NCBI GenBank assembly: GCA_041677685.1
Contig: JBAYPN010000020.1
Span: 1 to 13,314, forward strand
From: an archaeon
GTDB lineage: Archaea > Iainarchaeota > Iainarchaeia > Iainarchaeales > CSSED10-239
Direction of reading: 5' to 3'
Length of the DNA: 13,314 nt
Positions 1-13,314 of this stretch are shown here, piece after piece. Under the pieces are notes generated by a model. That model saw only the letters and a list, made by a program, of their open reading frames with translations. It ran no database searches and had not been told where the DNA came from. A program made the position numbers and the translations under genes. Positions within the stretch are counted from its first letter, which is position 1. Every line of letters starts with the position of its first letter.

Positions 1-83
1 ACAATTAAAATTAAAACAATTAAAATTAAAACAATTAAAATTAAAACAATTAAAATTAAAACAATTAAAATTAAAACAATTAA
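1..83. repeat. Tandem direct repeat with a 15-bp unit ACAATTAAAATTAAA, five copies plus an 8-nt partial copy. It runs off the left edge of the window.
   Basis: Read directly. Positions 1-75 are five perfect 15-mers. Positions 76-83 repeat the first 8 nt, and the match ends at g84. The array ends 12 nt before the SD (GAGGT 96-100) of the 108..596 gene. Confidence 0.95.
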
Positions 84-107
84 GAAAATAAAAAAGAGGT
101 TTTGTTT

Positions 108-596
108 ATGAAATTTAAATTTTTATTAGTTCTTTTCGGACTAATAGCTTTTACTAGTATGATTTTTGCAAATGCAAATATTACAGAGTTAAAAGATTTT
201 CAAGAAAATTATAACACAACAATTAACAATTCAAAAATTATAACTAAAGGGTCGATAGACATCTTTGTAGATAACATACATTCTAATCAATCCCCAATTA
301 ACATAATTGTAAATCATGCAAATAATATCTTTCTAAAAAGTGTTATTTTAAAAGACATAGGTGTTACAGGTTCTGCTCATTTCTATAATAATGTATTTTT
401 TGATTTAGGAGAAGTTGTTTTCAATTCAACAGTTACAATTAAATCAAAAGCAACTGTAGACACATTAAGCACAAACAATTTAAATGTAAATTCTTTAAGA
501 GGAAATGGTTCTGCTTTTGCTTGTCTTGATGCGGAGGGAAATTTATATAGAAGCTTAAAACCATGTGTCCATACAGGAAACACAAATGGGAAATAG
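108..596 (+). CDS. Secreted or surface protein of unknown function, with a signal peptide, an Asn/Ile/Val-rich beta-type body and a C-terminal Cys-bracketed motif.
   Basis: The ORF track gives 102..596 from a TTG. I prefer the ATG at 108 because GAGGT (96-100) lies 7 nt upstream of it. The N-terminus MKFKFLLVLFGLIAFTSMIFANA has a classic n-h-c signal peptide shape. The C-terminus reads GSAFACLDAEGNLYRSLKPC. I recognise no family. Confidence 0.7.
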   Translation: MKFKFLLVLFGLIAFTSMIFANANITELKDFQENYNTTINNSKIITKGSIDIFVDNIHSNQSPINIIVNHANNIFLKSVILKDIGVTGSAHFYNNVFFDLGEVVFNSTVTIKSKATVDTLSTNNLNVNSLRGNGSAFACLDAEGNLYRSLKPCVHTGNTNGK

Positions 597-607
597 ATAT
601 TCTAGTT

Positions 608-630
608 ATTTTCCTTTTTCCTTTTTTTTC
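608..630 (+). terminator. Oligo-T / T-C-rich tract, a candidate archaeal intrinsic terminator, downstream of 108..596.
   Basis: The tract attttcctttttccttttttttcc includes a T8 run at 622-629 and starts 12 nt after the stop codon. Confidence 0.4.
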
Positions 631-811
631 CAATTTCAATTATCTTTTTCTTAATAATTTTCAGTTTGCTTTTTCTAATTCCACATCTCTATAACTTAAT
701 TTAAATTATTAATACTCAATTGCAATCACTTATCTTACAAAACAATATTTATAAACTATTTCTCTCATAATTACTTATTATTTAAAAAAGAAAAAATGAG
801 TTGAGAATTAT

Positions 812-2215
812 ATGTTAAGAACACATACTTGTGGAGAGTTAAGAAAAGAAAATAAAGATCAAGAAGTAACTTTGACTGGGTGGGTTAATTCAATTAGAAG
901 TGCAGGGAAAAATATAATGTTTATTGACCTAAGAGATAGATATGGAATAACCCAAGTTGTTATTTTAAAAGACTTGATTGAAAAGTTAGATTTTTTAACA
1001 GAAATTAAAAACGAATATGTTCTAAAGATAGTTGGAATTGTTCAAGTTAAACCAAAAGCTAATGAAAAATTAGAGACTGGAGAAATTGAAATTCTTACTA
1101 AAAATATAGAGATTTTAAATAGTTGTGATGACCTACCAGTTGAAGTCTCAGGTGAACTAAAAGCAAATGAAGATACTAGACTAAAATATAGATATTTAGA
1201 TTTAAGAAGAAAAGAGATGACTGAGAATTTTATATTTAAACACAAAATTGTAAATGCAATTAGAAATTCTTTAGACAGAATGGATTTTTTAGATGTTGAT
1301 ACTCCAATGTTAGCAAGAAGTACACCAGAAGGTGCAAGGGACTTTTTAGTTCCAAGCAGAATCTATCCTGGTAAGTTTTTTGCTTTACCTCAATCCCCTC
1401 AAGTCTACAAACAGACTCTTATGGTTTCTGGCTTTGATAGATATTACCAAGTTGCAAAGTGTCTGAGGGATGAGGATTTAAGAGGAGATAGGCAATTGGA
1501 ATTTACACAAATTGATCTAGAGATGTCATTTATTACAAAAGAAGATATTCAAAATGTTTTAGAAATTTTTATTAAAGAGACTTTAAAAGAAGTTATGAAC
1601 TTAGAAATTAAAATTCCTTTCCCACATATTTCTTACAAAGAGTCTATGGAAAAATATGGAAATGATAAACCTGATCTAAGAAAAATTAAAGAAGATAAAA
1701 ACGAATTTGCTTTTGTTTGGGTTGATAACTTCCCATTATTTGAATTGAATGAAAATAAGAACAGATTAGTTTCTGCTCATCATCCATTTACTCAAGCAAC
1801 AAAAGAGGCTTGGGAGAATATAGGATCTTGTAAAAAAAATGAAGATTTTTTAAAATTATTTTCTGAATCATTTGATTTGGTTTTAAATGGTGTGGAGTTA
1901 GGTTCTGGGGGTATGAGAATACATGTTCCTGATAAACAAAAAACTATATTTAATATTTTAGGATTAAGCGAAGAGGAAGCAAAAGAGAAGTTTGGATTTT
2001 TATTAGATGCTTTTAGATTTGGTGCTCCTCCTCACGGTGGGTTTGCAATTGGTCTTGACAGGTTTATTATGCTTCTAAAAGGTAAAGATTCTTTAAAAGA
2101 TTTTATTGCTTTTCCAAAAACAAAATCAACTATGAGTATAATGGAAAATTCTCCAAATACAGTGTCAGATGAACAATTAAAGGAACTACATATTAAGCTT
2201 GATTTAGATGAATAG
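812..2215 (+). CDS. aspS: Aspartyl-tRNA synthetase of the bacterial sequence type, lacking the GAD insertion domain (467 aa).
   Basis: It is near-colinear with bacterial AspRS. Matching segments are [70 protein letters not shown] (motif 2), [22 protein letters not shown], and [19 protein letters not shown]...FIAFPKT (motif 3). Only 8 residues separate DKPDLR from [13 protein letters not shown]. Confidence 0.95.
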   Translation: [467 protein letters not shown]

Positions 2216-2648
2216 TTTCTATATTCCTTTTCTTTCTTTTTATATTAAAATTTCTTTTCTAGAAAACAAGATTAAAAGAATTGATTTTGTGAAGTCTGCT
2301 AAAAAATCAGAACTTAACCTTCTATCTAAAAAGTTTGAAGATTTTTTAAAAGGAAAAGTTTCAAGAAAAGAGATGTATTCTTTTTTAGATTTTTCTGGTT
2401 GTTCTTTTTTTCAAAAAAAGATCTATAAGTCCATGTCCTCTCTTAACTCAACAATAACTTATAAAAATTTAGCAGAAAAAAACAAAACCTCCCCAAGAGC
2501 AATTGGAGGGGCTATGAAAAGAAATCCATTTTTATTAGTTGTTCCTTGTCATTTGGTTGTTTCTAAAAATGGGTGTGGAGGTTTTTCTGCTCTTAATGGT
2601 TTTGAAACTAAAAAGAAATTAATTGATCTAGAACCTTATTTTCTATAA
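2208..2648 (+). CDS. ogt: Methylated-DNA--protein-cysteine methyltransferase (Ogt/MGMT family) with a variant active site, PCHLV.
   Basis: The C-terminal half, TYKNLAEKNKTSPRAIGGAMKRNPFLLVVPCHLVVSKNGCGGF...KKKLIDLE, matches the alkyltransferase DNA-binding domain pattern (Y..lA....paRAvG.A...NP..ivPCHRVv...G.lgGy....K..LL..E). The ATG overlaps the aspS stop by 8 nt (ATGAATAG). Confidence 0.8.
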   Translation: MNSFYIPFLSFYIKISFLENKIKRIDFVKSAKKSELNLLSKKFEDFLKGKVSRKEMYSFLDFSGCSFFQKKIYKSMSSLNSTITYKNLAEKNKTSPRAIGGAMKRNPFLLVVPCHLVVSKNGCGGFSALNGFETKKKLIDLEPYFL

Positions 2649-2656
2649 TTTTAAGT

Positions 2657-2932
2657 TTATTTATTTTTCACAATAAATTCAACAATTTCTTCAACAGGCT
2701 TATTAGTTGCTGTTGCAATTTCTGTAATTATTGTTTTTAAAAGAGCAGGATTAATATCTTTTCCATTTTTACATAATGGAATTTTATGCCCCTTTCCATC
2801 GGTAAAAACACGATGTTTACTTTGTGCCTTTTTTTCTTCAAACCCTAATTTTTGTAAAGCTCTATTCATTTGTTTATGTGTAAGAATTGGCATTTTCTTA
2901 AAGCAATTAATACTTCCTATTGGTTTTGCCAT
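2657..2932 (-). CDS. hicA: HicA-like (YcfA/HicA family) putative mRNA interferase toxin with a 13-aa N-terminal extension.
   Basis: MPILTHKQMNRALQKLGFEEKKAQSKHRVFTDGKGHKIPLCKNGKDINPALLKTII fits the HicA pattern (k.l.kaLek.GF......GSH..f.......vP.h..kdl..gtlk.Il). A strong SD, AAGGTGA, lies 6 nt upstream of the ATG at 2932. The gene starts 14 nt after the stop of the HD gene. Confidence 0.55.
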   Translation of the reverse strand: MAKPIGSINCFKKMPILTHKQMNRALQKLGFEEKKAQSKHRVFTDGKGHKIPLCKNGKDINPALLKTIITEIATATNKPVEEIVEFIVKNK

Positions 2933-2946
2933 AATCTGTCACCTTT

Positions 2947-3507
2947 TTAAAATTCCATATTTTCTTTAATTCCATTTAAGATTGCTTCAATAAATTTATT
3001 AATCTCTATCTTTGTTTTTTTTTCACAAACATATATTTCTTCTCTAGACACTGATGCTGCAAATGCCTTATCTTTTAATTTCTTAGTAATTGATGAAACT
3101 TTTGCAAGTTGTACATCCTTGTCAGGTCTCATCAAAACATATGCTCTAATAATTCCTGTAAGTCCATCACAAGAATAAAGAAGGTGTTCAATTTCTTTTT
3201 TTCTTTCAATTTTAAGAGCATCATTATGTGTTTTTATTATTTCAATAATGTCTTTATCTACATTTTCTAAATTTAATATTCTTTCTCCAACAACACAATG
3301 TTTAGTAATATCATTTTCATATTTCTCAATATCAATATCATGCAAGGTTCCAACAACAAACCAGTAATTTTGTTCTTCTTCATTTTTATTAAGGTATTTG
3401 GCTAGACCCTTCATTCCATACCCAACCATCAAACAATGTTCACGGTTTGCTTTTTCTTTAACATGTCTGTTAAGTATCTCTATAGTTTTTTCTTTTGTTG
3501 GAATCAT
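2947..3507 (-). CDS. HD-domain (HDIG-type) metal-dependent phosphohydrolase.
   Basis: The His...HD...H spacing is present: REHCLMVGYGMKGLA, then GTLHDIDIE, then KTHND. The ~186 aa size is typical of stand-alone HD hydrolases. Confidence 0.8.
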   Translation of the reverse strand: MIPTKEKTIEILNRHVKEKANREHCLMVGYGMKGLAKYLNKNEEEQNYWFVVGTLHDIDIEKYENDITKHCVVGERILNLENVDKDIIEIIKTHNDALKIERKKEIEHLLYSCDGLTGIIRAYVLMRPDKDVQLAKVSSITKKLKDKAFAASVSREEIYVCEKKTKIEINKFIEAILNGIKENMEF

Positions 3508-3556
3508 AATTATTTCATTTTCTAGATTTATTTAATTTATTTTTTTTAAAATTATT

Positions 3557-4075
3557 TTAATTTGTTCTTTCTACATTTATGTTAGTAACATCATTTTCTT
3601 TTAAAAATACTTCAAAAGAAATTTCTTGTTTTGCAGGCAATATTTCTACAAAGTTATTTAGTTTAATATTAGTTTCAAGATTAAGAGTAAACACAATCAT
3701 GTTTTCTTTCTTACTAATATTTAAGTTCCCAAAATTAATATATTCCTTTTGTTTTTCATAGAATCTTTGGTTTCTAATTTCTTGTTCAATTATGACAACA
3801 TTATTTATGTTATCAAAAGTAATAACATTTGTTGGTTCTATGTTTATCTTTTTATAAGATCCAGTCTCTGCTGTTTTTAGATCAATTAATATGTTATTAA
3901 TAATTGTTAATGTGTTTTTATTATTTTTATAAATTTGCATATCTTCAAGTGAATTAAAATATCCAACAATAAAGGCAATCATAATTCCCATAAACATAAT
4001 TCCAATTATAAAGATTAATATTCCAGTAAACATTGATGCTATTCCTTTTTGGTTTTTAAACAATACTTTAATCAT
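3557..4075 (-). CDS. Small archaeal prepilin-like protein: class III signal peptide plus a ~130-aa domain, with no lectin modules.
   Basis: The N-terminus is MIKVLFKNQKG|IASMFTGILIFIIGIMFMGIMIAFIVGYF, a short basic leader ending in KG followed by a long hydrophobic helix. The following domain shares the pattern seen after the helix in the two upstream genes (..I..L.DL.....GS..KINI.....ITFD..NN..I). It starts 3 nt after the stop of the 520-aa gene. Confidence 0.7.
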   Translation of the reverse strand: MIKVLFKNQKGIASMFTGILIFIIGIMFMGIMIAFIVGYFNSLEDMQIYKNNKNTLTIINNILIDLKTAETGSYKKINIEPTNVITFDNINNVVIIEQEIRNQRFYEKQKEYINFGNLNISKKENMIVFTLNLETNIKLNNFVEILPAKQEISFEVFLKENDVTNINVERTN

Positions 4076-4078
4076 ACT

Positions 4079-5641
4079 TTATCTAATTTCTATTTCTCCA
4101 ACAGTAATTAATTTTTCTATATTATTAATTGTGTTATATTCAGTTTTAATCCAATCATCTGATCTTGCAATTTTTGAAATTCTAAGCTCGCAGATTGCTC
4201 CTGTCAAAGAACTTCCAATTGTAACATTTGTGGTATTACTTAATGCTAAGTTTGAAAATAGTTTTGGGTTATATTTTTGTTCACCATTAACATATAATCT
4301 TCCATAATTATTACTAATTGTAAATGCTATTTGATTTTCTGTATATTCTGTGAAATTTGTGTTGTATTCATTACCTGAAAAATTATTCCCACCTCCAGCA
4401 TACCCACCTTCAGTATCCCCAAAACAAGTGTATTTAAATCTATTACCATTATTCCTATTATCATATTTAAACCAAATTCCTGTGTGTGGGTTAGGAGAAT
4501 CAGGTTGTCCTTTTAAAAAAATAGAAATTAATTTTCCTGTGTTTGTTGAATAATCTAATTCATTAAAATAATTTACTGATGATATTGTTACATTTTCTAA
4601 TGTGTTTAAAGATTCAGAATTGTTAACAACTAAATATTGGTTTTTTGAGGAATCTAAGACAACACAATTTCTATTATTTACTTTTGTAAATACTGCATTG
4701 TTTACATTGTTAACTATATCATTATTATTATTTGTTGAATCAAAAGAATCATTAAAGTGTAATACCATTAAAAAATCATCATCCCAAGTCTGAGTATCAT
4801 TTGTTTCAGTCCCATTCTCATTCCCATAATACATATAGATATTAGTATTTTTATTCCCATCAAGATCACCTGGAATTTTTACAAAAGCAATTAGCTCTCC
4901 ACTTTCAGAGTTATAATCCTCAATTTCTCTTGAAAGCTTTGTAAATCCATCAGCACTTGTAAAAACAACATCACTACCATCACTTTTCCCCTTCTGTTTA
5001 AGGGCAAGAGATGTTAAAGAGATAGGTACAGGGAAGTTAGTTACTGTTCCTGAAACATAATTAGAATCAATTATTAGAAGTTGCCTGTACTCCCAATTAC
5101 TATTATACCAGTTATTTGTTCTTTCTCTTTTTGGAACAATATCAATTTGTATTTTTTCAGTTTGAGAATTATAATCAAAATAAGAAACAGTAATTGTATT
5201 TTTTCCTTGTTTTAAATTAAGATTATTGCAATTTAGATTAATTAGATTATTAGAATTATTTATTTCTTTTTCAAAAAATACTTTTCCAAGTTTCTTATAT
5301 AAAATAATATTATTAACATTCACATTTTGGTCTGTTCTAAAATTAGAACCATAAACTACACTTCCAATTATCTTATTATTTTCACAATCAATTGTAAGCT
5401 CTTCAGGGTTATTAACAATTACCTCTTGTCTTTGAAATCTGTTGTTTGAAACTTCTTGTATTTTTTTGTCAAGACTATCTATTGTTTTTAACATTAATTC
5501 ATAATTGTTCTTTTGTTTATTTTTTTCAATAATGTTTAGAGATCCACTAATAACTATTGCTAAAACAGACAGAGCAAGCAATATATAAAAAATATATGCA
5601 ATTAAGTTAACTACGCCTTTCTTGTTTTTAATCAGATTCAT
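4079..5641 (-). CDS. Prepilin-like surface protein carrying one DUF2341 module and one LamG/ConA-like (Laminin_G_3-type) lectin module (520 aa).
   Basis: The leader is MNLIKNKKG|VVNLIAYIFYILLALSVLAIVISGS. The DUF2341 signature spans aa 178-285: WYNSNWEYRQLLIIDSNYVSGTVTNFPVPI...DGSDVVFTSADGFTKLSREIEDYNSESGELIAFVKIPGDL...NIYMYYGNENG. The LamG-type module spans aa ~290-505 and ends in GAICELRISKIARSDDWIKTEYNT. The gene overlaps its upstream neighbour by 14 nt. Confidence 0.8.
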   Translation of the reverse strand: MNLIKNKKGVVNLIAYIFYILLALSVLAIVISGSLNIIEKNKQKNNYELMLKTIDSLDKKIQEVSNNRFQRQEVIVNNPEELTIDCENNKIIGSVVYGSNFRTDQNVNVNNIILYKKLGKVFFEKEINNSNNLINLNCNNLNLKQGKNTITVSYFDYNSQTEKIQIDIVPKRERTNNWYNSNWEYRQLLIIDSNYVSGTVTNFPVPISLTSLALKQKGKSDGSDVVFTSADGFTKLSREIEDYNSESGELIAFVKIPGDLDGNKNTNIYMYYGNENGTETNDTQTWDDDFLMVLHFNDSFDSTNNNNDIVNNVNNAVFTKVNNRNCVVLDSSKNQYLVVNNSESLNTLENVTISSVNYFNELDYSTNTGKLISIFLKGQPDSPNPHTGIWFKYDNRNNGNRFKYTCFGDTEGGYAGGGNNFSGNEYNTNFTEYTENQIAFTISNNYGRLYVNGEQKYNPKLFSNLALSNTTNVTIGSSLTGAICELRISKIARSDDWIKTEYNTINNIEKLITVGEIEIR

Positions 5642-8141
5642 TTTTCTCTAATTCTCCAGTTTTAAAAAGATAAGCAGAATATTTCTGAGTAAGGTATTCT
5701 GTTTTTAACCAATCATCTGACCTTATGGTGCTTGAGATCTTAAGTTCATCAATCATCCCTTTAAAATATTCAGCTCCACTATAAGCTTTACCAAGCATTA
5801 ACAAGCCATTTGAAATATTATCCTCTCTTGTAACTTCTACTTCTCTACTCTTATGATCGTCTACATATAGTTTAAGAGTCTGTTTATCATATGCCCAACA
5901 AACATAATGATTTTCATGTTTTAAAATATATTCACCATATGTTGTGTGATATCCTGCTGAAGGTAAGCCATTACGTAAATAGACTCCAAAGTTAGGATTT
6001 GTAAAATTTATTACATAATTAGAGCCACTGTTATAAACTACTCTTTTATATTCTTCAAATTCTTTATTTACCCACATACAATAAGTTATTTCTTCAATAA
6101 CATCTTGGCTAATGGAAAGGTAATCATCAGTTCCATCAAATTTAATTCCTCTTCCAATAATTCCATAAACATCTGTGTTTGAATCTATATTAAAATCAAA
6201 ATTATAAAGAAAGCCATTATGTTTATTTTTTGTAGAATCAAAATAACCAAGTCCATTTGTGGTTGGCTTTTCTGAAAAATGTAAAACTGTATTATAATAT
6301 TTGTCCCAAGAATCAGTATCATTAGTTTCATTTGCTTGATTGTTTCCAAAGTATATGTAGATTGAGCTATTTAGATTTGCATAGATTTTTGGGATCTTAA
6401 CATATGCAATTAATTTTTTTCCTACCTCTTCAACTTCTCCAAGTGAGTAAAAGTTATCTGGATCATTTTGATTTTCATATTCAGTTTTTATCCAATTGTT
6501 TGTTTTTGCTTTGCTTGATATTCTAAACTCATCAATATATCCAAAATGTGTGTAATAAAGATTGTTTAGATAACCAAAACCAAGATACAAAGAAGTGTTA
6601 TTCTGTTGTAAATAATCTGACACTCTGTTCTGTTCTCCAGAAAGCACACCATCAACATAAATGTACTCTTTATTTTCTTCTGAGTTATAAACATAGGTTA
6701 TAAGATGCCACTGATCAATATCAAGAACAGGGTTTGTTGTAAAAAAGTTTCCATTTCCATTCTCATATAATATTTTTTTACTTGCTTGAATTAAAACTCT
6801 CCCAACATCATTAGCATTATGTTTATACCAAATCCCTGAATAATAGCTTAAGGTTTCTCCACTCCAGTTAACCCAAGCACTAACACTCAACTGATTCCAA
6901 TTTCCAGCTTGACTAGCATCTCCAAAATCAATATATTCATTTCCATCAAAGTAATTTGCTTTTCCAATCTTTCCAGAAACATCTGTGTTTGAATTATTAC
7001 CTAAGTCAAGATCATTATAAGTCCCATTAAGATTATTTAAAGTAGAGTCTTTATATGCTCCAACAACACCATTACCTCCATCTTGACTTAAATGTTGGAC
7101 AATCTTGTAATCCTCAGTCCACACAAATTTAGAATTTTCAACCCTTTGGTTCTTGTCTCCAAAAAACATATAGATAACTGTGTCTTCATCTTTTAAAAGT
7201 TCAGGAACCTTTACCCAAACATTAAGTTTTCCACTCTCAAAATTATAATCTTCAATTTCTCTTTCTAAAATTGTTAGACCATCAGAAAGTGTAAAGTAAA
7301 TGTCAAGCCCATCTTCTCTTGTATGATTAATAAGGTCACTATTGGTTATTGAGACTAAAACAGCAAAATCATTTAAATTATCATATACTTTGTTAGAGTC
7401 AATTGTAATTTTTTGTTTATAGATTAAATTTTGAGAAAAATAATCAATTTCTCTTTTTAATTTAAAAGTTCCATTGTCCGTAGTAAAGACAATATCCTTT
7501 CCATCTTCTTTTGCAAAATAACCTAAGTCTTTATCAATTATCTCTACAGGAATTGTAAAGTTATTTAAGTCTGCAGATATAAAATTAGAATCTAATAATA
7601 ATCTTTTTCTATATTTCCAATTTTCATCATACCAAGAGACCTCTTCTATTGCTTGTGTACTTATCTTCAATTTATTTTTTTCAAGTTTAGTAATATAAAG
7701 TTCAATTTTTTTATTGTTTATTAGTTCATCTGAAATTATGTTAATGTTAGTATATTCAATTCCAGCAACTAGTTTTTGTTTATCTCTGTAAGTGTATAAA
7801 CCATTCTTTATAATTTCTGTTGTTTCTTTATAAAATTTAGAATTTGTAATTTGGTAGATTTCTATTTTATTTTGATTTGAGTCAATAAGTAAATATAGTT
7901 TATCTAGATCTATGTTTATTTTAGTTGTTGATCCATTTGGTAGTGCCATAACCTCTTTTATCTTTTGATCTAAAGTATTTATATAGTTTTTAGACAACTC
8001 ATGTTTTTGTTTTGCTTGTTGGTTTGAGACACCAGGAATAACACCATTCATAATTAATGCAACTGTTAAACTTATAACTAAGATTACCATTGTATAACCT
8101 AATATCTCAGATGCTCCTTTATTATTTTTTTTTAAGCTCAT
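5628..8141 (-). CDS. Large prepilin-like surface protein with two DUF2341 modules, one nested inside the other, and two LamG/ConA-like lectin modules (837 aa).
   Basis: The leader is MSLKKNNKG|ASEILGYTMVILVISLTVALIMNGV, which resembles the archaeal Pilin_N domain. DUF2341 N-half copies lie at aa 170-236 and 240-299, and C-half copies at aa 300-335 and 575-615. LamG modules at aa ~345-560 and ~617-820 end in FGYIDEFRISSKAKTNNWIKTEYENQ and FKGMIDELKISSTIRSDDWLKTEYLTQ. Confidence 0.8.
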   Translation of the reverse strand: MSLKKNNKGASEILGYTMVILVISLTVALIMNGVIPGVSNQQAKQKHELSKNYINTLDQKIKEVMALPNGSTTKINIDLDKLYLLIDSNQNKIEIYQITNSKFYKETTEIIKNGLYTYRDKQKLVAGIEYTNINIISDELINNKKIELYITKLEKNKLKISTQAIEEVSWYDENWKYRKRLLLDSNFISADLNNFTIPVEIIDKDLGYFAKEDGKDIVFTTDNGTFKLKREIDYFSQNLIYKQKITIDSNKVYDNLNDFAVLVSITNSDLINHTREDGLDIYFTLSDGLTILEREIEDYNFESGKLNVWVKVPELLKDEDTVIYMFFGDKNQRVENSKFVWTEDYKIVQHLSQDGGNGVVGAYKDSTLNNLNGTYNDLDLGNNSNTDVSGKIGKANYFDGNEYIDFGDASQAGNWNQLSVSAWVNWSGETLSYYSGIWYKHNANDVGRVLIQASKKILYENGNGNFFTTNPVLDIDQWHLITYVYNSEENKEYIYVDGVLSGEQNRVSDYLQQNNTSLYLGFGYLNNLYYTHFGYIDEFRISSKAKTNNWIKTEYENQNDPDNFYSLGEVEEVGKKLIAYVKIPKIYANLNSSIYIYFGNNQANETNDTDSWDKYYNTVLHFSEKPTTNGLGYFDSTKNKHNGFLYNFDFNIDSNTDVYGIIGRGIKFDGTDDYLSISQDVIEEITYCMWVNKEFEEYKRVVYNSGSNYVINFTNPNFGVYLRNGLPSAGYHTTYGEYILKHENHYVCWAYDKQTLKLYVDDHKSREVEVTREDNISNGLLMLGKAYSGAEYFKGMIDELKISSTIRSDDWLKTEYLTQKYSAYLFKTGELEKNESD

Positions 8142-8224
8142 TTATTTTTTCTGTTTTTACGTATAGTTTTTCTGTTTTTCTTAATTAAAATATATTTAAG
8201 TAATTATAAGTAATTATATTTGTT

Positions 8225-8242
8225 TTAGAAAATCTTTAAAAA
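8225..8242 (+). promoter_or_regulatory. BRE/TATA-like promoter motif TTAGAAAATCTTTAAAAA, upstream of 8276..8746.
   Basis: A purine-rich stretch is followed by CTTTAAAAA, ending 33 nt before the ATG at 8276. Nearly the same 18-mer recurs at 8732..8749 and 9612..9628. Confidence 0.35.
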
Positions 8243-8275
8243 GGTATTTACTACTAGGTTTATTGTGAATGACCT

Positions 8276-8746
8276 ATGTTAAGGCTAAGAAAAAGGATTA
8301 TCCCTAAAAGAAAGAAAAAAATATTAAAATTAAATTCAAATTTAGAAAAATACATTAGAGATTATAAAGCCTTTTCAGAATTAAGTGCTTCTCAAAAATT
8401 AGAAGTTCATAGTTTTATTAAGAAGAACCATAAATACTTAGCAGATAAAGAAGTAGTTACTTCTTTATTAGAAAAAATAAGTTCTTATGAAAAACAAAAA
8501 TCAACAAATCCTTTACCTTTAGAGAAGAAAAAAGAAAATTTAAAATTATTTTACAAGTCTTTAAGTTCTATAGAAAAAGAATATATAGATTCCCATATGA
8601 GACTTTTTAACTTAGGACAAAGAATAAAAGAAAGTAATATAATTAGAAATGGATATGTTGATGTTTTATATAAATTAAATTCAGAAAATATTAATAAATT
8701 GTATAAAAAGATATTAGAACACTTCTTAGATTTAGGAAATCTTTAA
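8276..8746 (+). CDS. Hypothetical Lys-rich protein (156 aa) with a strongly basic N-terminus.
   Basis: This is a long ORF in a plausible context, divergent from the pilin-like cluster. The N-terminus is MLRLRKRIIPKRKKKILKL. I recognise no family. Confidence 0.55.
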   Translation: MLRLRKRIIPKRKKKILKLNSNLEKYIRDYKAFSELSASQKLEVHSFIKKNHKYLADKEVVTSLLEKISSYEKQKSTNPLPLEKKKENLKLFYKSLSSIEKEYIDSHMRLFNLGQRIKESNIIRNGYVDVLYKLNSENINKLYKKILEHFLDLGNL

Positions 8747-8749
8747 AAA
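8732..8749 (+). promoter_or_regulatory. Second copy of the BRE/TATA-like motif (TTAGGAAATCTTTAAAAA), upstream of tRNA-His.
   Basis: 17 of 18 positions are identical to 8225..8242. It overlaps the stop codon of 8276..8746 and ends 42 nt before the tRNA-His 5' end. An alternative TATA-like taatatatat (8761-8770) lies closer to the tRNA. Confidence 0.3.
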
Positions 8750-8791
8750 CTTATTTAGTCTAATATATATGTATATTTCTTATGTTTTTGT

Positions 8792-8864
8792 GGTCCGCAT
8801 AGTGTAGTGGTTAGCATAGGAGTCTGTGGATCTCCTGGCCCGGGTTCAAATCCCGGTGTGGACC
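8792..8864 (+). tRNA. tRNA-His (anticodon GUG) with a genomically encoded G-1 opposite C73. No CCA is encoded.
   Basis: Folded by hand. G-1 is at 8792. The acceptor is GUCCGCA/UGUGGAC with one G-U pair, followed by U8. The D arm is GUGU/GCAU. The anticodon stem is GGAGU/UCUCC with U31-U39 unpaired, and the loop CUGUGGA places the anticodon at 8826-8828. The variable loop is 4 nt. The T arm is CCGGG-UUCAAAU-CCCGG. The discriminator C is at 8864, followed by a T-rich tract. Confidence 0.9.
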
Positions 8865-8880
8865 CTTTTTTCTTATTTTT

Positions 8881-9468
8881 TTAAAATAATGGGATGTCTA
8901 TTCCTAATTTCTTAATTAAAAAATAATACACAATTATTATTAAAATTATTATAAATGTAAATATTAATAATTGATATTTGTTTACATGTTTATGATACTT
9001 TTTTCTATCCTTATGTAACTTTACATCCATTAGTTCATCAGCAAACAAAATGGATAAAAAAGTTCCAATCCCTGAAAGAATTATTATTATCCAAAAGGGC
9101 CAAGGGTTTGTAAGTATTTGTTTAAATAATGATAAAAGTATTGTGGAGTTATAGATTTGCGGATTTAGAAAAAAGAAAAAAACATTAACAATAGCAGCAA
9201 CAATCCAAACAATTATTTCTGTATATACCATTTTCAATTTTGTAATTAACCTTATTGGAAAATCTATCAAAAAACCAGCATCTGCAATTGGTGTACAGAA
9301 CACAAAGAATGACCAAGTAAGAATTGTAATTGAAATTCCGTCTTTAAATCCAAGCTTTAGACTTGTCAATAGAAAGTACACAATTATAACTAATAATATA
9401 AATAAAAACTTTCTAAGAGTATGTTTTTTAGTTTCGTGTTTTAGATTAAATTTTTCTTTTGATTTCAT
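8881..9468 (-). CDS. Polytopic integral membrane protein of unknown function (195 aa, about 5-6 predicted TM helices).
   Basis: There are several long hydrophobic stretches: FLFILLVIIVYFLLT, ITILTWSFFVFCTPIA, IIVWIVAAIVNVFFFFL, PFWIIIILSGIGTFLSILFA and LLIFTFIIILIIIVYYFLI. I recognise no family. Confidence 0.6.
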   Translation of the reverse strand: MKSKEKFNLKHETKKHTLRKFLFILLVIIVYFLLTSLKLGFKDGISITILTWSFFVFCTPIADAGFLIDFPIRLITKLKMVYTEIIVWIVAAIVNVFFFFLNPQIYNSTILLSLFKQILTNPWPFWIIIILSGIGTFLSILFADELMDVKLHKDRKKYHKHVNKYQLLIFTFIIILIIIVYYFLIKKLGIDIPLF

Positions 9469-9611
9469 CTTTAATTTTCTATAAGTTTTTCTCTTTCTCT
9501 TTTTGAGATATTTTAGTTATCATTATTTGTAATTATAAAAGTTATTAAAAACTTTTTGGATTTTTTAATTTTAGATTAAATTTTTCTTTTTTTGTAAAAA
9601 TTAACCTTTTT

Positions 9612-9628
9612 TTAGAAAACTTTAAAAA
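9612..9628 (+). promoter_or_regulatory. Third copy of the BRE/TATA-like motif (TTAGAAAACTTTAAAAA), in the hsp20 upstream region.
   Basis: It is the same as 8225..8242 apart from one missing T. It lies 91 nt upstream of the hsp20 ATG. A second TATA-like element, aaatatatatta (9664-9675), lies closer. Confidence 0.3.
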
Positions 9629-9719
9629 TCTTTTTAATAAATCTTTTTATTTTTTTTGTTTCAAATATATATTAGAAGTTCTTTTTTAATAAACAATTTA
9701 GAAAATAAGAGGTGATGTT

Positions 9720-10193
9720 ATGAAAAGATATACAATTTGGGATGAAATGAGAAGAATGCAAAGGGATATGGATTCTTTATTTGAAGACTTTGTATATTCT
9801 AAAAACCCTTATCTTCTTGTAGATTCTAAGAACAAAAATGAACTAGAAACAAAAGAAAACTATAGAGAACCAGTATGTAACATAGAAGAAGATAAAGAAA
9901 ACTATAATTTTTCCTTAGAGATTCCTGGATCTAAAAAAGAGGATATTAAGATAAATATAAATGATAATATCTTAGAGATAGAAGTAGAGCATAAAAAGGA
10001 AGAAAAAAAGGATGATGAAAAGAAAGGATCTTATAGTTATTCAAGAAGCTATTCTGGATTTTACAGATCTTTTTCTCTTCCAAGAAACATTGATAAGGAC
10101 AATGTAGATGCAGAGTATAAAGATGGTGTTTTAAAAATAAAGATTCCAAAAAAAGAAATCTCTTCTTCTCAGAAGCAAATTGAGGTTAAGTGA
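9720..10193 (+). CDS. hsp20: Small heat shock protein, Hsp20/alpha-crystallin family.
   Basis: The alpha-crystallin domain pattern is present: PVCNIEEDKENYNFSLEIPGSKKEDIKININDNILEIEVEHKKE......GFYRSFSLPRNIDKDNVDAEYKDGVLKIKIPKKE. The SD AAGAGGTGA (9708-9716) lies 3 nt before the ATG. A T7 run (10194-10200) directly follows the stop. Confidence 0.9.
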   Translation: MKRYTIWDEMRRMQRDMDSLFEDFVYSKNPYLLVDSKNKNELETKENYREPVCNIEEDKENYNFSLEIPGSKKEDIKININDNILEIEVEHKKEEKKDDEKKGSYSYSRSYSGFYRSFSLPRNIDKDNVDAEYKDGVLKIKIPKKEISSSQKQIEVK

Positions 10194-10208
10194 TTTTTTT
10201 AACCTCTC

Positions 10209-10751
10209 TTATTCTTTAAGTAAATAATAAAGTTCTTTGTTTAGAACAATATTATTTACTTTTCCTAATTTTTCTTTTTTAATAATATTATTGTCCTCTA
10301 AATTTTGAATAATTCTATGTACTTTAATTTTGCTTAAACCTTCAATATAGGTAAGTTCATATTGTCTAATTCTACCATCATTTTCTAATATTTTTTCAAT
10401 TATTTTTTTCTCAGTATTTGAAAGTAAATTTAAAATTATTTTATTTTTTGATTTAATTTTTAATTCTGTTTTATATATTTTTTCAGACATAATATAATAT
10501 GTTAAAATTCCAACAAAGAGCCCAAGAAATGCACTGATTGGTATTAGATAAAAAACATAATTTGGTTTTGAAGGCTTATTTAGAATATAGTCTTTTAATT
10601 CATCAAATGAATAAAGATCAATTGTTGTAACATCAATATTCCTTTCACTTCTATTTATTTTCTGTTGTGAGGAGATAAATAAAAGTAATGATGTTATTAT
10701 TAAAATAAATGAGAGTAATAAAGCTAGTCCAGTAATTATCTTTTTATTCAT
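10209..10751 (-). CDS. Membrane-anchored winged-helix (wHTH) transcriptional regulator of the archaeal COG2512-like architecture.
   Basis: The first TM segment is MNKKIITGLALLLSFILIITSLLLFISS. A ~35-aa loop follows, then the second TM segment YVFYLIPISAFLGLFVGILTYYIM. The C-terminal part, LLSNTEKKIIEKILENDGRIRQYELTYIEGLSKIKVHRIIQNLEDNNIIKKEKLGKVNNIVL, looks like a MarR/TrmB-type wHTH. Confidence 0.6.
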   Translation of the reverse strand: MNKKIITGLALLLSFILIITSLLLFISSQQKINRSERNIDVTTIDLYSFDELKDYILNKPSKPNYVFYLIPISAFLGLFVGILTYYIMSEKIYKTELKIKSKNKIILNLLSNTEKKIIEKILENDGRIRQYELTYIEGLSKIKVHRIIQNLEDNNIIKKEKLGKVNNIVLNKELYYLLKE

Positions 10752-10934
10752 ATTAATCTATTAATTATAATTATAAAAATTATTATAAAGTGTGTGTATT
10801 TGGTAATCATTTTGTTTTTCTAATCAATAGTTTCACTCTTTTGTAACATAGTTTCAATAATTGCTATATATGGTAACAATCATATATTTTTATATGTACT
10901 TAAAATAATCAAAAGTACAAAAGGAGTTGAAAAT

Positions 10935-11384
10935 ATGAATAAGAACATAAAAATTATAAGTTCAATTTTAGTGTTATTAAGTTTTGTTTTAACACTAGGG
11001 TTTGTAAGTGCTTATAGAGGAAATGTTAATCAGGCAGGTCCAAATTATGACATAGAGGTTCACGATTCTATTCAGGTTGCAATTGAGTCAAAAGATTACT
11101 TAACATGGTATAGGTTAATGTCTGAGAAAGGAAATTCTAAAATAACATCTGTAATAACAGAGGATATTTTTTCAGAATTTAGTTCTGCTTATCTAGAGGC
11201 AGTTTCAGGAAATGTAGAAGCTTTAGTTGAATTTAGAGAGTCTGTTGGTTTAGGTCAAAAAAATCAGTTTAGGAAAAACAATTTAGAAGGTAAAAGGTTT
11301 AGAAACAATCAAGATTCTAGTATGAATAATGGATCTTTTCAAAAAAGAGGTTTAAATAATTCTAATTGCAATTGTTTTAATTAG
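10935..11384 (+). CDS. Small secreted protein of unknown function (149 aa).
   Basis: The signal peptide is MNKNIKIISSILVLLSFVLTLGFVSA. The SD AAGGAG (10921-10926) lies 8 nt upstream of the ATG. The gene is divergent from the membrane wHTH regulator. Confidence 0.6.
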   Translation: MNKNIKIISSILVLLSFVLTLGFVSAYRGNVNQAGPNYDIEVHDSIQVAIESKDYLTWYRLMSEKGNSKITSVITEDIFSEFSSAYLEAVSGNVEALVEFRESVGLGQKNQFRKNNLEGKRFRNNQDSSMNNGSFQKRGLNNSNCNCFN

Positions 11385-11418
11385 TTTTATTTTTTTTCTT
11401 TCTTTCCTTTTTCTTTTT
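11385..11418 (+). terminator. T/C-rich oligo-T tract, a candidate archaeal terminator, after 10935..11384.
   Basis: The tract ttttattttttttctttctttcctttttcttttt starts immediately after the TAG stop. Confidence 0.4.
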
Positions 11419-11498
11419 AAACTTATTTGTTCATAATATATTTGTAAGTTTTAGTATTTATATTATTTAATTTAAAAATATTTTAAAATTTAAGATTT

Positions 11499-11570
11499 GC
11501 TTCTGTGGCTCAGTGGTAGAGCGCAACCTTGGTAAGGTTGAGGTCGCGGGTTCAATTCCCGCCAGAAGCT
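11499..11570 (+). tRNA. tRNA-Thr (anticodon GGU), discriminator U73, no encoded CCA.
   Basis: Folded by hand. The acceptor is GCUUCUG/CAGAAGC, followed by UG. The D arm is GCUC-AGUGGUA-GAGC. The anticodon arm is CAACC-UUGGUAA-GGUUG, with the anticodon at 11531-11533. The variable loop is AGGUC. The T arm is GCGGG-UUCAAUU-CCCGC. The discriminator U is at 11570. Confidence 0.92.
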
Positions 11571-12376
11571 TGTCAAACTATTTCTCTTGATGCCTTTAAA
11601 ATAAAGGTTTTAGAAGAAAATCACTCTAAAGGATACTATAAGTCTCTTGCTAAATTAAACAGCATCTTTAGTAAAAATATATATAAAAACCATCAAGAAC
11701 TGCTTGAAGATTATAAAAAAAACATAGATTTGGTTAATAATACTCAAAGTAGTAGAAAAATTGTGTCAAAGTTTTTAAATTACCTTAAAGATGAAGGATT
11801 CTCTCAAGAAAACATAGTTTCTTGTAAAAAACTATTAAAAAAGGATATAAATTTTTCAAATGACACTTATGTTCCAACAGATCAAGAAATAAAAGTTACT
11901 TTATCTAAGCTAAGAGAAGATTTAAAGCCATTATATCTTCTTTTCTTATTTAGTGGAATAAGGGTGTCAGAAGGCATATATACCTTTTAAACAACTTAAA
12001 TAATTTAAAGATACAGTGTAAAGATAATTACTGCAAGATACACCTAGATTACAATAGACACAATAAACGCTCCTTTTTTTGTTATATACCTCACTTTATT
12101 TACACACAGATAGGTGTCCAGAAAACAGAACTAAACAATATTCGTATATTTATTAAAAGAAATAAGCTTATTCCTTTAAAGTACTGCAGAAAATGGTTTT
12201 ACACTAAATGTATTGAGTTAGGTATACCAGAGTCTATTGCTGATTTTTATGAAGGAAGGGTTGCAACTTCTGTTGGTTCTAACCATTATCTTTCAAGACA
12301 GGCATTGGCTGATAAGAACTACATTAAATTATTAGATTTCTTTAATAATTTTTATAATGAGATAAAGGAGGTATAA
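11520..12376 (+). pseudogene. Tyrosine recombinase/integrase (archaeal SSV-like type) that lacks an ATG start, is open through the 3' half of tRNA-Thr, and is broken by a 1-nt frameshift near 11976-11990.
   Basis: Frame A (11520..11990) encodes ...KFLNYLKDEGFSQENIV...YVPTDQEIKVTLSKL...PLYLLFLFSGIRVSEGIYTF*, with the box I Arg in SGIRVSE. A frame shifted by -1 is open from 11954 to the TAA at 12374-12376. It encodes ...IYLLNNL...CKIHLDYNRHNKRSFFCYIP...LKYCRKWFYTKCIELGIPESIADFYEGRVATSVGSNHYLSRQ..., which carries the box II-like R, a GR, and the catalytic-type HY. Confidence 0.7.
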
Positions 12377-12379
12377 AGT

Positions 12380-12499
12380 ATGATAGATAAAAAAACTATT
12401 GAAAGTTTTAAGAAAACAGACCCTGAGATTTTAAAAAGACTTCCAAAGTGGCAACAGAAGTTGCATAAGATAATTTTGGAATTAAATAAAAATAGATAA
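12380..12499 (+). CDS. Small hypothetical protein (39 aa: MIDKKTIESFKKTDPEILKRLPKWQQKLHKIILELNKNR).
   Basis: It is not in the ORF track because it is too short. A very good SD, AGGAGGT (12366-12372), lies 7 nt before the ATG at 12380, directly after the integrase stop. The TAA is at 12497-12499. Confidence 0.45.
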   Translation: MIDKKTIESFKKTDPEILKRLPKWQQKLHKIILELNKNR

Positions 12500-12540
12500 A
12501 TTAGTTTGTTTTTTTATATTTTTCTACATATAATTATAAT

Positions 12541-13176
12541 ATGGATAAATTATTAAAAAAAGAAATAATTATTATTCCTTGGTTTCATAACTCTAAATCT
12601 ATTATTCATAAAATTATATTATCTGAATTAAATAAAATAAATTTAAAAGTATTATTTATTGAAGGGAGTTCAGATAAAAAATTATTATCAACTGTACTTA
12701 ACACTAAAGATTTTTATATTAATTATTCTGAGCCTCAAATAAATATGCTTGAAGCAAGTTATCAATTATTTTGTTTAAAAATAAATCATAAAATTCCTTT
12801 AGATTCTTTTGAATTACATAAAAAATGTGAATATATAAAAAAAGAATTTAGTACAAATATAACTATTGAAAATTTTAATAAATTAAGAAATGTTTCTTTA
12901 GAACGTGTAAAAAAATGGATTGATGTAATTGAAAAAAATAATCATTTTAAAAAATTGTTTGCTATTGTAGGTATGAGTCATTGTATAGATTTTAAACATG
13001 AATTAGAAAAAAAAGGTTATAAAGTAGAAATTCTAAATTATATATTTGGCAGTCTTAAACAAAAGGTTGAAGATTATACTACTATTTGGGATGAATTTTG
13101 GAACTTAGAAAATATTAAAGATATTAATCAAAAATGGTTTTTTTTAGATTCTTTTTCTTTTGAAAATAATGATTAA
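12541..13176 (+). CDS. Hypothetical protein (211 aa), possibly of the Tiki/TraB/PrgY/GumN-like superfamily.
   Basis: The N-terminal IIIIPWFHNSKSIIHKI...LKVLFIEG and C-terminal LFAIVGMSHCIDFKHELEKKGYKVE resemble the paired motifs of TraB-like proteins (llGT.H.s......i.......v.vE and vvvGagH..g....L...Gy.v). The match is by eye only. Confidence 0.5.
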   Translation: MDKLLKKEIIIIPWFHNSKSIIHKIILSELNKINLKVLFIEGSSDKKLLSTVLNTKDFYINYSEPQINMLEASYQLFCLKINHKIPLDSFELHKKCEYIKKEFSTNITIENFNKLRNVSLERVKKWIDVIEKNNHFKKLFAIVGMSHCIDFKHELEKKGYKVEILNYIFGSLKQKVEDYTTIWDEFWNLENIKDINQKWFFLDSFSFENND

Positions 13177-13258
13177 AATATGGTGATTTTGTAAAATAAA
13201 GCAATTTATTTAAATACAATTACTTACTATATAATATATAGGAATTAAGTGATTTATA

Positions 13259-13314
13259 ATGTATGAACAAATATTTAGAAATATAGATAATGTCTTAAGA
13301 CAAGATTCAGGATG
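13259..13314 (+). CDS. 5' end (18 codons) of a gene truncated by the window edge. It is possibly an N6-adenine DNA methyltransferase of a restriction-modification system.
   Basis: MYEQIFRNIDNVLRQDSG resembles the conserved N-terminal helix of HsdM/type IIG methylases (..iw...d.LR.d.g...). This is very short and therefore weak evidence. Confidence 0.3.
   Translation, partial: MYEQIFRNIDNVLRQDSG

Follow-up and report, generated by a model that had tools for sequence, protein, structure and literature searches.

Can one module of a surface protein sit inside a second copy of itself, and what then becomes of the copy that is interrupted? The question is raised by a minus-strand gene (5628–8141) on contig JBAYPN010000020.1 of assembly GCA_041677685.1, from an archaeon of the lineage Iainarchaeota; Iainarchaeia; Iainarchaeales; CSSED10-239. 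By the window we mean the whole stretch of this contig that was analysed, positions 1–13,314 (13,314 nucleotides, nt). The gene, taken from the list of open reading frames (ORFs), has an exact match in public collections and encodes an 837-amino-acid (aa) protein, A837, with a pilin-like N terminus followed by DUF2341 and LamG domains (Pfam DUF2341, and Laminin_G_3 twice). Next to it, on the same strand at 4079–5641, lies the gene for a 520-aa paralogue, B520, which has the same kind of N terminus followed by a single uninterrupted DUF2341–LamG module (Pfam; models of the separate parts place the N-half of DUF2341 at aa 181–243, the C-half at 250–274 and LamG at 275–518). B520 thus provides a reference for the empty site within the window itself. 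The original prediction, made from the DNA alone, was that the parts of A837 run in the order N1-[N2-C1-LamG1]-C2-LamG2, where N and C are the two halves of DUF2341, and that a whole module had been inserted at the junction of the halves. We consider it likely that A837 is indeed nested, that it is a pilin-like surface protein of modular build from a DPANN-type archaeon, and that it arose when a module was copied into a hairpin or through an equivalent recombination between paralogous cassettes.

The order of the parts was first of all a matter for profiles. Our module hidden Markov model (HMM) describes the contiguous DUF2341–LamG unit in 321 positions; it was built from P0007 and B520, which are un-nested, and from three inner modules of nested proteins, with N1 and C2–LamG2 excluded. 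It matches A837 three times: with positions 1–65 at aa 173–239 (E = 5e-21), with the complete 1–321 at aa 237–571 (E = 5e-132) and with 69–321 at aa 572–832 (E = 2e-42). Because the two partial matches cover positions 1–65 and 69–321, N1 and C2–LamG2 are exactly complementary, with the hairpin turn alone missing, and the break point of the outer DUF2341 is its β4–β5 hairpin. Both Pfam families score well above their gathering cut-offs, each over two stretches of A837: DUF2341 (PF10102) with 43.5 bits against 23.4 (B520 reaches 35.8 bits) and Laminin_G_3 (PF13385) with 94.3 bits against 27.6.

On this basis A837 can be read from end to end. A pilin-like module, conserved in relatives, occupies aa 1–166 (7644–8141; minus strand here and for the parts that follow) and consists of a basic leader, MSLKKNNKG/ASEI, a hydrophobic helix and a small β-sheet domain. 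N1, the N-half (β1–β4) of the outer, split DUF2341, spans aa 167–236 (7434–7643) and ends in ...KLKREIDYF. It is followed by the complete inner DUF2341 (N2 plus C1) at aa 237–335 (7137–7433), where the best Pfam stretch is 277–333 and the part HMMs find N at 237–299 and C at 306–329, and by the inner, concanavalin-A-like LamG with the module tail NFYSLGEVE at aa 336–571 (6429–7136; LamG HMM 1–228 at aa 330–571, 271 bits), where the inserted copy ends. C2, the C-half (β5–β6, ...KLIAYVKIP...IYIYFGN) of the outer DUF2341, comes with its linker at aa 572–611 (6309–6428), and the outer LamG with the C-terminal tail closes the protein at aa 612–837 (5631–6308; Pfam Laminin_G_3 669–811, LamG HMM 602–832). 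The insert had originally been placed at 6420–7433, which is aa 237–574; as defined by the profile it is aa 237–571, nt 6429–7433.

Direct comparison with B520 gives the same picture. By BLASTP, A837 aa 1–571 covers all of B520 with aa 167–236 skipped, and aa 562–832 falls a second time on B520 aa 231–518. In Smith–Waterman local alignments with 500 shuffles, N1 (aa 168–236) matches B520 aa 176–244 with z = 27, the inner DUF2341 (aa 238–345) matches aa 182–290 over the whole length of the domain with z = 37, and C2 (aa 569–614) matches the C-half and linker with z = 17. The two LamG domains resemble each other (z = 19), and N1 and C2 show no similarity (z = −1.3). The tail of the insert, NFYSLGEVE, corresponds to the ends of both proteins, LITVGEIEIR in B520 and LFKTGELEKNESD in A837, each directly before the stop, so that what was copied is the entire C-terminal module down to its tail. 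Only 3 residues separate N1 from N2 and about 4 the tail from C2, which excludes hidden, divergent half-domains at the junctions. Excising aa 237–571 leaves a hairpin that is colinear with the empty sites of P0007 (KLKKEVESYSDGNLVAWVKVP) and B520 (REIEDYNSESGELIAFVKIP). The prediction therefore holds in its core: the order of the parts is as proposed, the inserted segment is a complete DUF2341–LamG module, aa 170–236 and 575–615 are complementary halves of one DUF2341 domain, and rejoining N1 to C2 restores a hairpin like that of the paralogue. Three of the marks by which a nested domain is recognized are thus found for A837: profile-complementary host halves, a complete inserted module and insert-free homologues with a continuous host domain. 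For a fourth, the packing of both host segments into one fold, the models described below give indirect support.

The arrangement is not confined to one sequence. Identical or near-identical 837-aa proteins are present in several NCBI metagenome-assembled genomes, in JGI data and in Logan assemblies, and P0002, which is 85% identical to A837, is colinear with it without a gap; the nest is therefore not an assembly artefact. Besides A837, nine further proteins have the order N-N-C-L-C-L, in which L is LamG, down to 34% identity. P0003 (35%) and P0004 (34%) are nested in the same order, and the complementary profile coordinates 1–65, 1–321 and 69–321 recur in A837, P0002, P0003 and P0004, and also in L008 orf1, L033, L038, L039 and the truncated P0056, which are nested too. 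In the 985-aa P0049 we found a third level. Its residues 1–268 are about 68% identical to P0094, a 305-aa protein with the pilin-like module and one DUF2341 but no LamG, and its last 35 residues match the end of P0094; the 665 aa in between, which share 51% identity with the P0003 nest of two levels, are flanked by a duplicated β6 segment.

Relatives with an empty site, which share the N-terminal domain and have an uninterrupted DUF2341, include P0007, P0050, P0121, L034 and L036. When 199 fetched DUF2341 proteins were scanned with the module profile, self-nested N-N-C-L-C-L was found in the small pilin-like family only; outside it, all were head-to-tail arrays, (N-C-L)n, or carried a foreign insert in the hairpin. 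An exhaustive search with the N-terminal profile returned mostly giant multi-module proteins and yielded P0049, P0050, P0056 and P0094, and further word-indexed homologue searches gave no additional nested proteins. A scan of genome representatives found just two loci with the N-terminal domain of the A837 family.

If the outer domain still folds, its separated halves should be maintained. We compared the A837 gene with that of the colinear 85% orthologue (P0002) by the Nei–Gojobori method and obtained a ratio of nonsynonymous to synonymous substitution (dN/dS) of 0.08 for N1 and 0.17 for C2, next to 0.21 and 0.27 for the inner N- and C-halves and 0.15 for the whole gene. Across four aligned nested orthologues, down to 34% identity, no core residue of N1 or C2 varies. 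The low ratios and the invariant core indicate, at the level of sequence comparison, that both halves are under purifying selection and are not decaying remnants.

Structure prediction points the same way. We modelled the complete A837 sequence with AlphaFold2 (AF2) from an alignment of 30 rows, 6 of which are nested proteins; un-nested relatives were entered as two pieces to keep the pairing of halves unbiased. The model has a mean predicted local distance difference test score (pLDDT) of 78.9 and a predicted template modelling score (pTM) of 0.72, with pLDDT of 89–96 in N1, 91–98 in the inner DUF2341 and 91–95 in C2. The secondary structure of the outer DUF2341 mirrors that of the inner one element by element: strands at 177–183 and 192–203 correspond to 240–247 and 256–266, the helix at 204–209 to 268–273, strands at 218–220 and 230–235 to 282–285 and 294–300 and, beyond the insert, strands at about 576–586 and at 592–598 to 305–315 and 321–327. 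A single unbroken strand, aa 565–586, leads from the tail of the inner module into outer β5. As a control, A837 was ended at residue 571, removing C2–LamG2, and modelled with the same alignment. The pLDDT of N1 fell by 15–20 points to 69–82 and all N1 strands disappeared from the DSSP assignment, so that in the model the fold of N1 depends on the C-terminal part; the inner DUF2341 was unchanged (pLDDT 93–97, identical strands), and N1 did not take over the neighbouring C1 when C2 was missing. Had the two halves been independent, non-interacting units, the prediction would have failed; this outcome was not obtained in the models, which together with the homology lend indirect support to a nested fold.

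We therefore propose the following architecture. The outer DUF2341 β-sandwich would be built from distant segments, with strands 1–4 supplied by aa 167–236 and strands 5–6 by aa 572–611, and its β4–β5 hairpin would hold the second full module, that is, DUF2341, LamG and C-terminal tail strand (aa 237–571). Because the tail strand of a module would return beside its first strand, the two ends would be adjacent and a module could sit in a hairpin. The two DUF2341–LamG lectin modules would form a nest and not a chain. The connectors, aa 230–247 and aa 565–586, most likely pair as a two-stranded β-ribbon, a rigid mount for the inner module on the outer one; the equal lengths of aa 230–247 and aa 565–582 in the model suggest such a ribbon between the two domains. 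A filament subunit built in this way would present two LamG heads as a stiff, branched unit, probably to attach to glycans of a host or surface.

Several features suggest that the subunit is pilin-like. The N terminus of A837 begins with a short charged leader, MSLKKNNKG followed by ASEILGYTMVILVISLTVALIM, with a G/A cleavage site and the start of a hydrophobic helix, and resembles the N termini of B520 and of C172, the third protein of the cluster. In the AF2 model, a helix at 7–65 and a small sheet at 72–164 have the shape of a type IV pilin. P0012, a bacterial homologue, combines a prepilin N-methylation domain with two DUF2341–LamG modules. In Foldseek searches with the AF2 model, the LamG parts match jelly-roll folds, namely LG domains of laminin, LNS domains of neurexin, Hc domains of clostridial toxins and lectin domains of sialidases (E around 1e-8), and the matches include PilC, a lectin-bearing minor pilin of Streptococcus sanguinis (PDB 7oa8); a sequence search of the PDB with B520 found no solved relative. 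Makarova et al. have proposed that DUF2341 proteins are archaeal pilus-tip adhesins (PMC4858521). Taken together, our analysis suggests that A837 is most likely a modular minor pilin or tip adhesin with two lectin heads.

Some observations weigh against parts of this account. The alignment beneath the AF2 models is shallow, we infer the contacts between N1 and C2 from confidence scores and changes in DSSP, and N1 in the truncation control might depend on LamG2 and not on C2. As for the pilin assignment, no pilin model reached its threshold: the best we can point to is ComGF on A837 with E = 0.011 and 15.9 bits, where the cut-off is 80; Pfam gave no match to a pilin family, and the 13-kb window contains neither a prepilin peptidase nor an assembly ATPase or platform protein. 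Incorporation into a pilus and binding of glycans are likewise what we infer for A837. Finally, when the N, C and LamG parts are compared in pairs, their identities do not separate neatly into an inner and an outer class. The un-nested P0050 and the nested P0003 are 91% identical across the N-terminal domain and N1; beyond it, the LamG of P0050 is 77% identical to the inner and 32% to the outer LamG of P0003, whereas its linker (47% to the inner, 65% to the outer) and its tail (67% and 75%) are closer to the outer copy. With an inner-like LamG and an outer-like linker and tail, the history read from these sequences is not one clean insertion, and the mosaic suggests exchange of cassettes.

This bears on the claim, made at the outset, of one insertion or offset duplication. 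Copying of one module into the hairpin is still the simplest description, but a single event is no more than plausible: the similarities of LamG and linker are mosaic, and the identical order would also result if two parts had been duplicated separately or if paralogous cassettes had recombined. A comparison of orthologues had been suggested as a way to date the insertion, but with an inconsistent, mosaic pattern of identities it gave no date. We saw no sign of recent duplication at the DNA level in A837, where the paralogous pieces are just 70–77% identical, and the nest is therefore old in this lineage.

The misfit of the mosaic with one clean insertion also speaks for the strongest rival, in which the N-half and the C-half with LamG were each duplicated in tandem, in separate events, leaving behind an N-half and a C-half that form no domain. 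MAFFT, too, prefers to align un-nested relatives as N1 plus C1 plus LamG1 with two gaps, and the family does contain partial units whose register is shifted, in the B-type proteins encoded at L004 and L008 (described below). Yet leftover halves should decay, and the conservation of N1 and C2 ranks with the highest in the protein; both junctions coincide in a single 4-residue hairpin turn; and AF2 gives pLDDT above 90 for both halves, with N1 dependent on the C-terminal part. We therefore regard idle leftovers as unlikely. Two events may nonetheless have been the historical route, which would end in the same final nested structure.

A second rival accepts that the halves are used but completes them differently: crosswise within the chain, as N1–C1 and N2–C2, or between chains, with N1 taking C2 from a neighbour in a polymerization resembling donor-strand complementation. 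Nothing points to this directly; a pilin-like protein would presumably stand among other subunits, and a split domain could be completed by another chain. However, the contiguous N2–C1 domain is unchanged and highly confident in both AF2 runs, N1 does not capture C1, and a single chain is modelled with both halves confident. We judge completion in trans or crosswise to be very improbable. A chimaeric assembly, a sequencing-error fusion of adjacent paralogues or a tandem array with unrecognized divergent halves is close to negligible as an explanation: A837 and B520 are adjacent and could in principle be mis-joined, and divergent halves did escape the part HMMs in two B-type proteins, those of L004 and L008, so that these at first looked split, but the same 837-aa protein is found in independent NCBI, JGI and Logan assemblies, orthologues at 85%, 35% and 34% identity retain the order, and the short gaps leave no space for hidden halves.

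Given that A837 is nested, how stable is the arrangement within its family? Sister proteins that are 69–92% identical through the pilin-like domain and the N-half differ in what follows, being nested, plain or without LamG. The nested P0056 and the un-nested protein of L036 (2495–4048) are about 92% identical until ...KLKREIENYN, and their identity collapses exactly at the hairpin; P0049 and P0094 are another sister pair that differs in architecture. A tree built on the N-terminal domain mixes nested with un-nested proteins, in at least four sister pairs. Architecture therefore changes often in this family, with the hairpin as a recurrent junction. Tentatively, one could go further and see in the β4–β5 hairpin a recurrent, possibly reversible docking site for whole modules, where nesting to as many as three levels, its reversal and the swapping of LamG cassettes would be ongoing variation of the adhesive tip of a filament. 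The architectural differences between sisters, the collapse of identity between P0056 and L036 at ...REIENYN and the mosaics of LamG, linker and tail are compatible with this possibility. If it were true, this variation would play a role comparable to that of cassette-based pilin or adhesin variation.

The same hairpin accepts other guests elsewhere in DUF2341 proteins. In P0182, a Gly_rich_2 domain (PF21722, E = 2.5e-14) lies within it at aa 458–677, and P0113 carries an unknown 160-aa domain there twice (aa 1643–1803 and 2164–2328). A different loop is occupied in P0147, where a piece resembling CBM_4_9 (aa 499–693) sits between β3 and β4. Two further candidates, the B-type paralogues encoded downstream of the nested gene at L004 8469–11828 (1113 aa) and L008 2000–4420 (807 aa), were considered as split DUF2341 domains with foreign inserts and rejected, being sequential arrays. 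In each of them, one or two divergent units separate an ordinary N-half from an ordinary C-half. Each unit has the order C-half-like (PYYIEE..IWIKT), concanavalin-A-like (FFDDFD..KW) and N-half-like (FYEIVITN..LTDYQVSIP), which puts the register out of step at the hairpin and creates hybrid domains.

Nested domains of the form A1-B-A2, whose two host halves come together again in the folded protein, are familiar from the integrin β PSI/hybrid/βI arrangement (three levels) and from split PH domains. There, however, host and insert have unrelated folds, whereas in A837 they are paralogous copies of one module. Our literature search on self-insertion and nested domains found nothing relevant, and a broader one led to a survey of ECOD, according to which domain insertion occurs in about 20% of multidomain proteins (PMC13114784; PMC11515920). 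A close parallel is SI3 of the cyanobacterial RNA polymerase β′ subunit, a recursive same-fold insertion of sandwich-barrel hybrid motifs with up to six levels (PMC13114784; PMC11515920). In both SI3 and A837 a domain lies in a loop of a homologous domain, with repeated levels (A1-B1-C-B2-A2 in SI3), and un-nested versions exist in relatives, for SI3 in other lineages; the interrupted host keeps its fold in SI3 and probably does so in A837. The two differ in that the A837 insert is a two-domain module of about 335 aa and larger than its host of about 100 aa, while inserts in the survey are typically smaller than their hosts; in that the A837 family reaches at most three levels; in that its members are surface or pilin-like proteins and not a core enzyme; and in that close relatives have different architectures.

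In probable function, close counterparts are PilC and PilB of S. sanguinis, type IV pilins of modular build onto which lectin or adhesion modules have been grafted (PMC9934059, PMC8179133; PDB 7oa8). Like A837, they have an N-terminal pilin module followed by a concanavalin-A-like lectin module, a design proposed to make filaments adhesive; unlike A837, which is known from sequence and models, they are bacterial, carry one module appended end to end and have neither DUF2341 nor nesting. Among archaea, arCOG03508 groups large DUF2341 proteins in type IV pilus loci, for which the pilus-tip adhesin role was proposed (PMC4858521). These proteins and the giant tandem-array surface proteins share with A837 both Pfam domains, the N-C-L module and class III signal peptide or prepilin N termini (as in P0012), but the giant arrays string their DUF2341–LamG modules head to tail without self-nesting. 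Nested and even recursive same-fold insertion is thus already known, and the principle is not new. What is specific here is a two-domain insert that exceeds its host in size and is paralogous to the host module, in an uncharacterized DUF2341 family of pilin-like DPANN proteins whose nesting depth varies among close relatives.

The surroundings of the gene are those of a small cluster in DNA of about 25% G+C. The genes for A837, B520 and C172 follow one another on the minus strand, and in all three products a long hydrophobic stretch comes after a short, basic N-terminal leader. The end of A837 and the start of B520 overlap by 14 nt (5628–5641), as they do in similar fashion at the P0002 and P0003 loci, which is consistent with co-translation of the paralogous pair from one operon. 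C172 (3557–4075) is a small protein with the pilin-like hydrophobic N terminus KNQKG/IASMF... and no family match beyond a weak one to UpsA (E = 0.15); a gene of similar size comes after the A837/B520-type pair in the P0002 contig. Upstream of A837, a 156-aa ORF on the plus strand (8276–8746) has no family match, and a 156-aa gene stands at the equivalent position in the P0002 contig. Elsewhere the window encodes an aspartyl-tRNA synthetase, an O6-methylguanine methyltransferase-like protein, an HD-domain protein, Hsp20 and two tRNAs. One of these, tRNA-Thr (11499–11570), is directly followed by a truncated integrase-like ORF (region 11499–11990) that ends in ...LFLFSGIRVSEGIYTF before a stop and whose frame is broken downstream; it may be the remnant of a tRNA-integrated element.

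The nest has implications for how such proteins are annotated and understood. Sequence-based domain callers report an orphan half-domain in such a protein, and multiple aligners misplace un-nested relatives across the nest. DUF2341, widespread and uncharacterized, is found in giant surface proteins and in candidate pilus-tip adhesins of archaea and ultrasmall bacteria, and its β4–β5 hairpin tolerates very large inserts, up to an entire copy of the DUF2341–LamG module. A module that forms a closed unit whose ends meet provides a structural hypothesis for DUF2341, and would be a natural design for the rigid, branched display of two lectins. Finally, if the architectural lability of the family reflects active exchange of cassettes, it would offer host-dependent DPANN archaea a route to the diversification of their adhesins.

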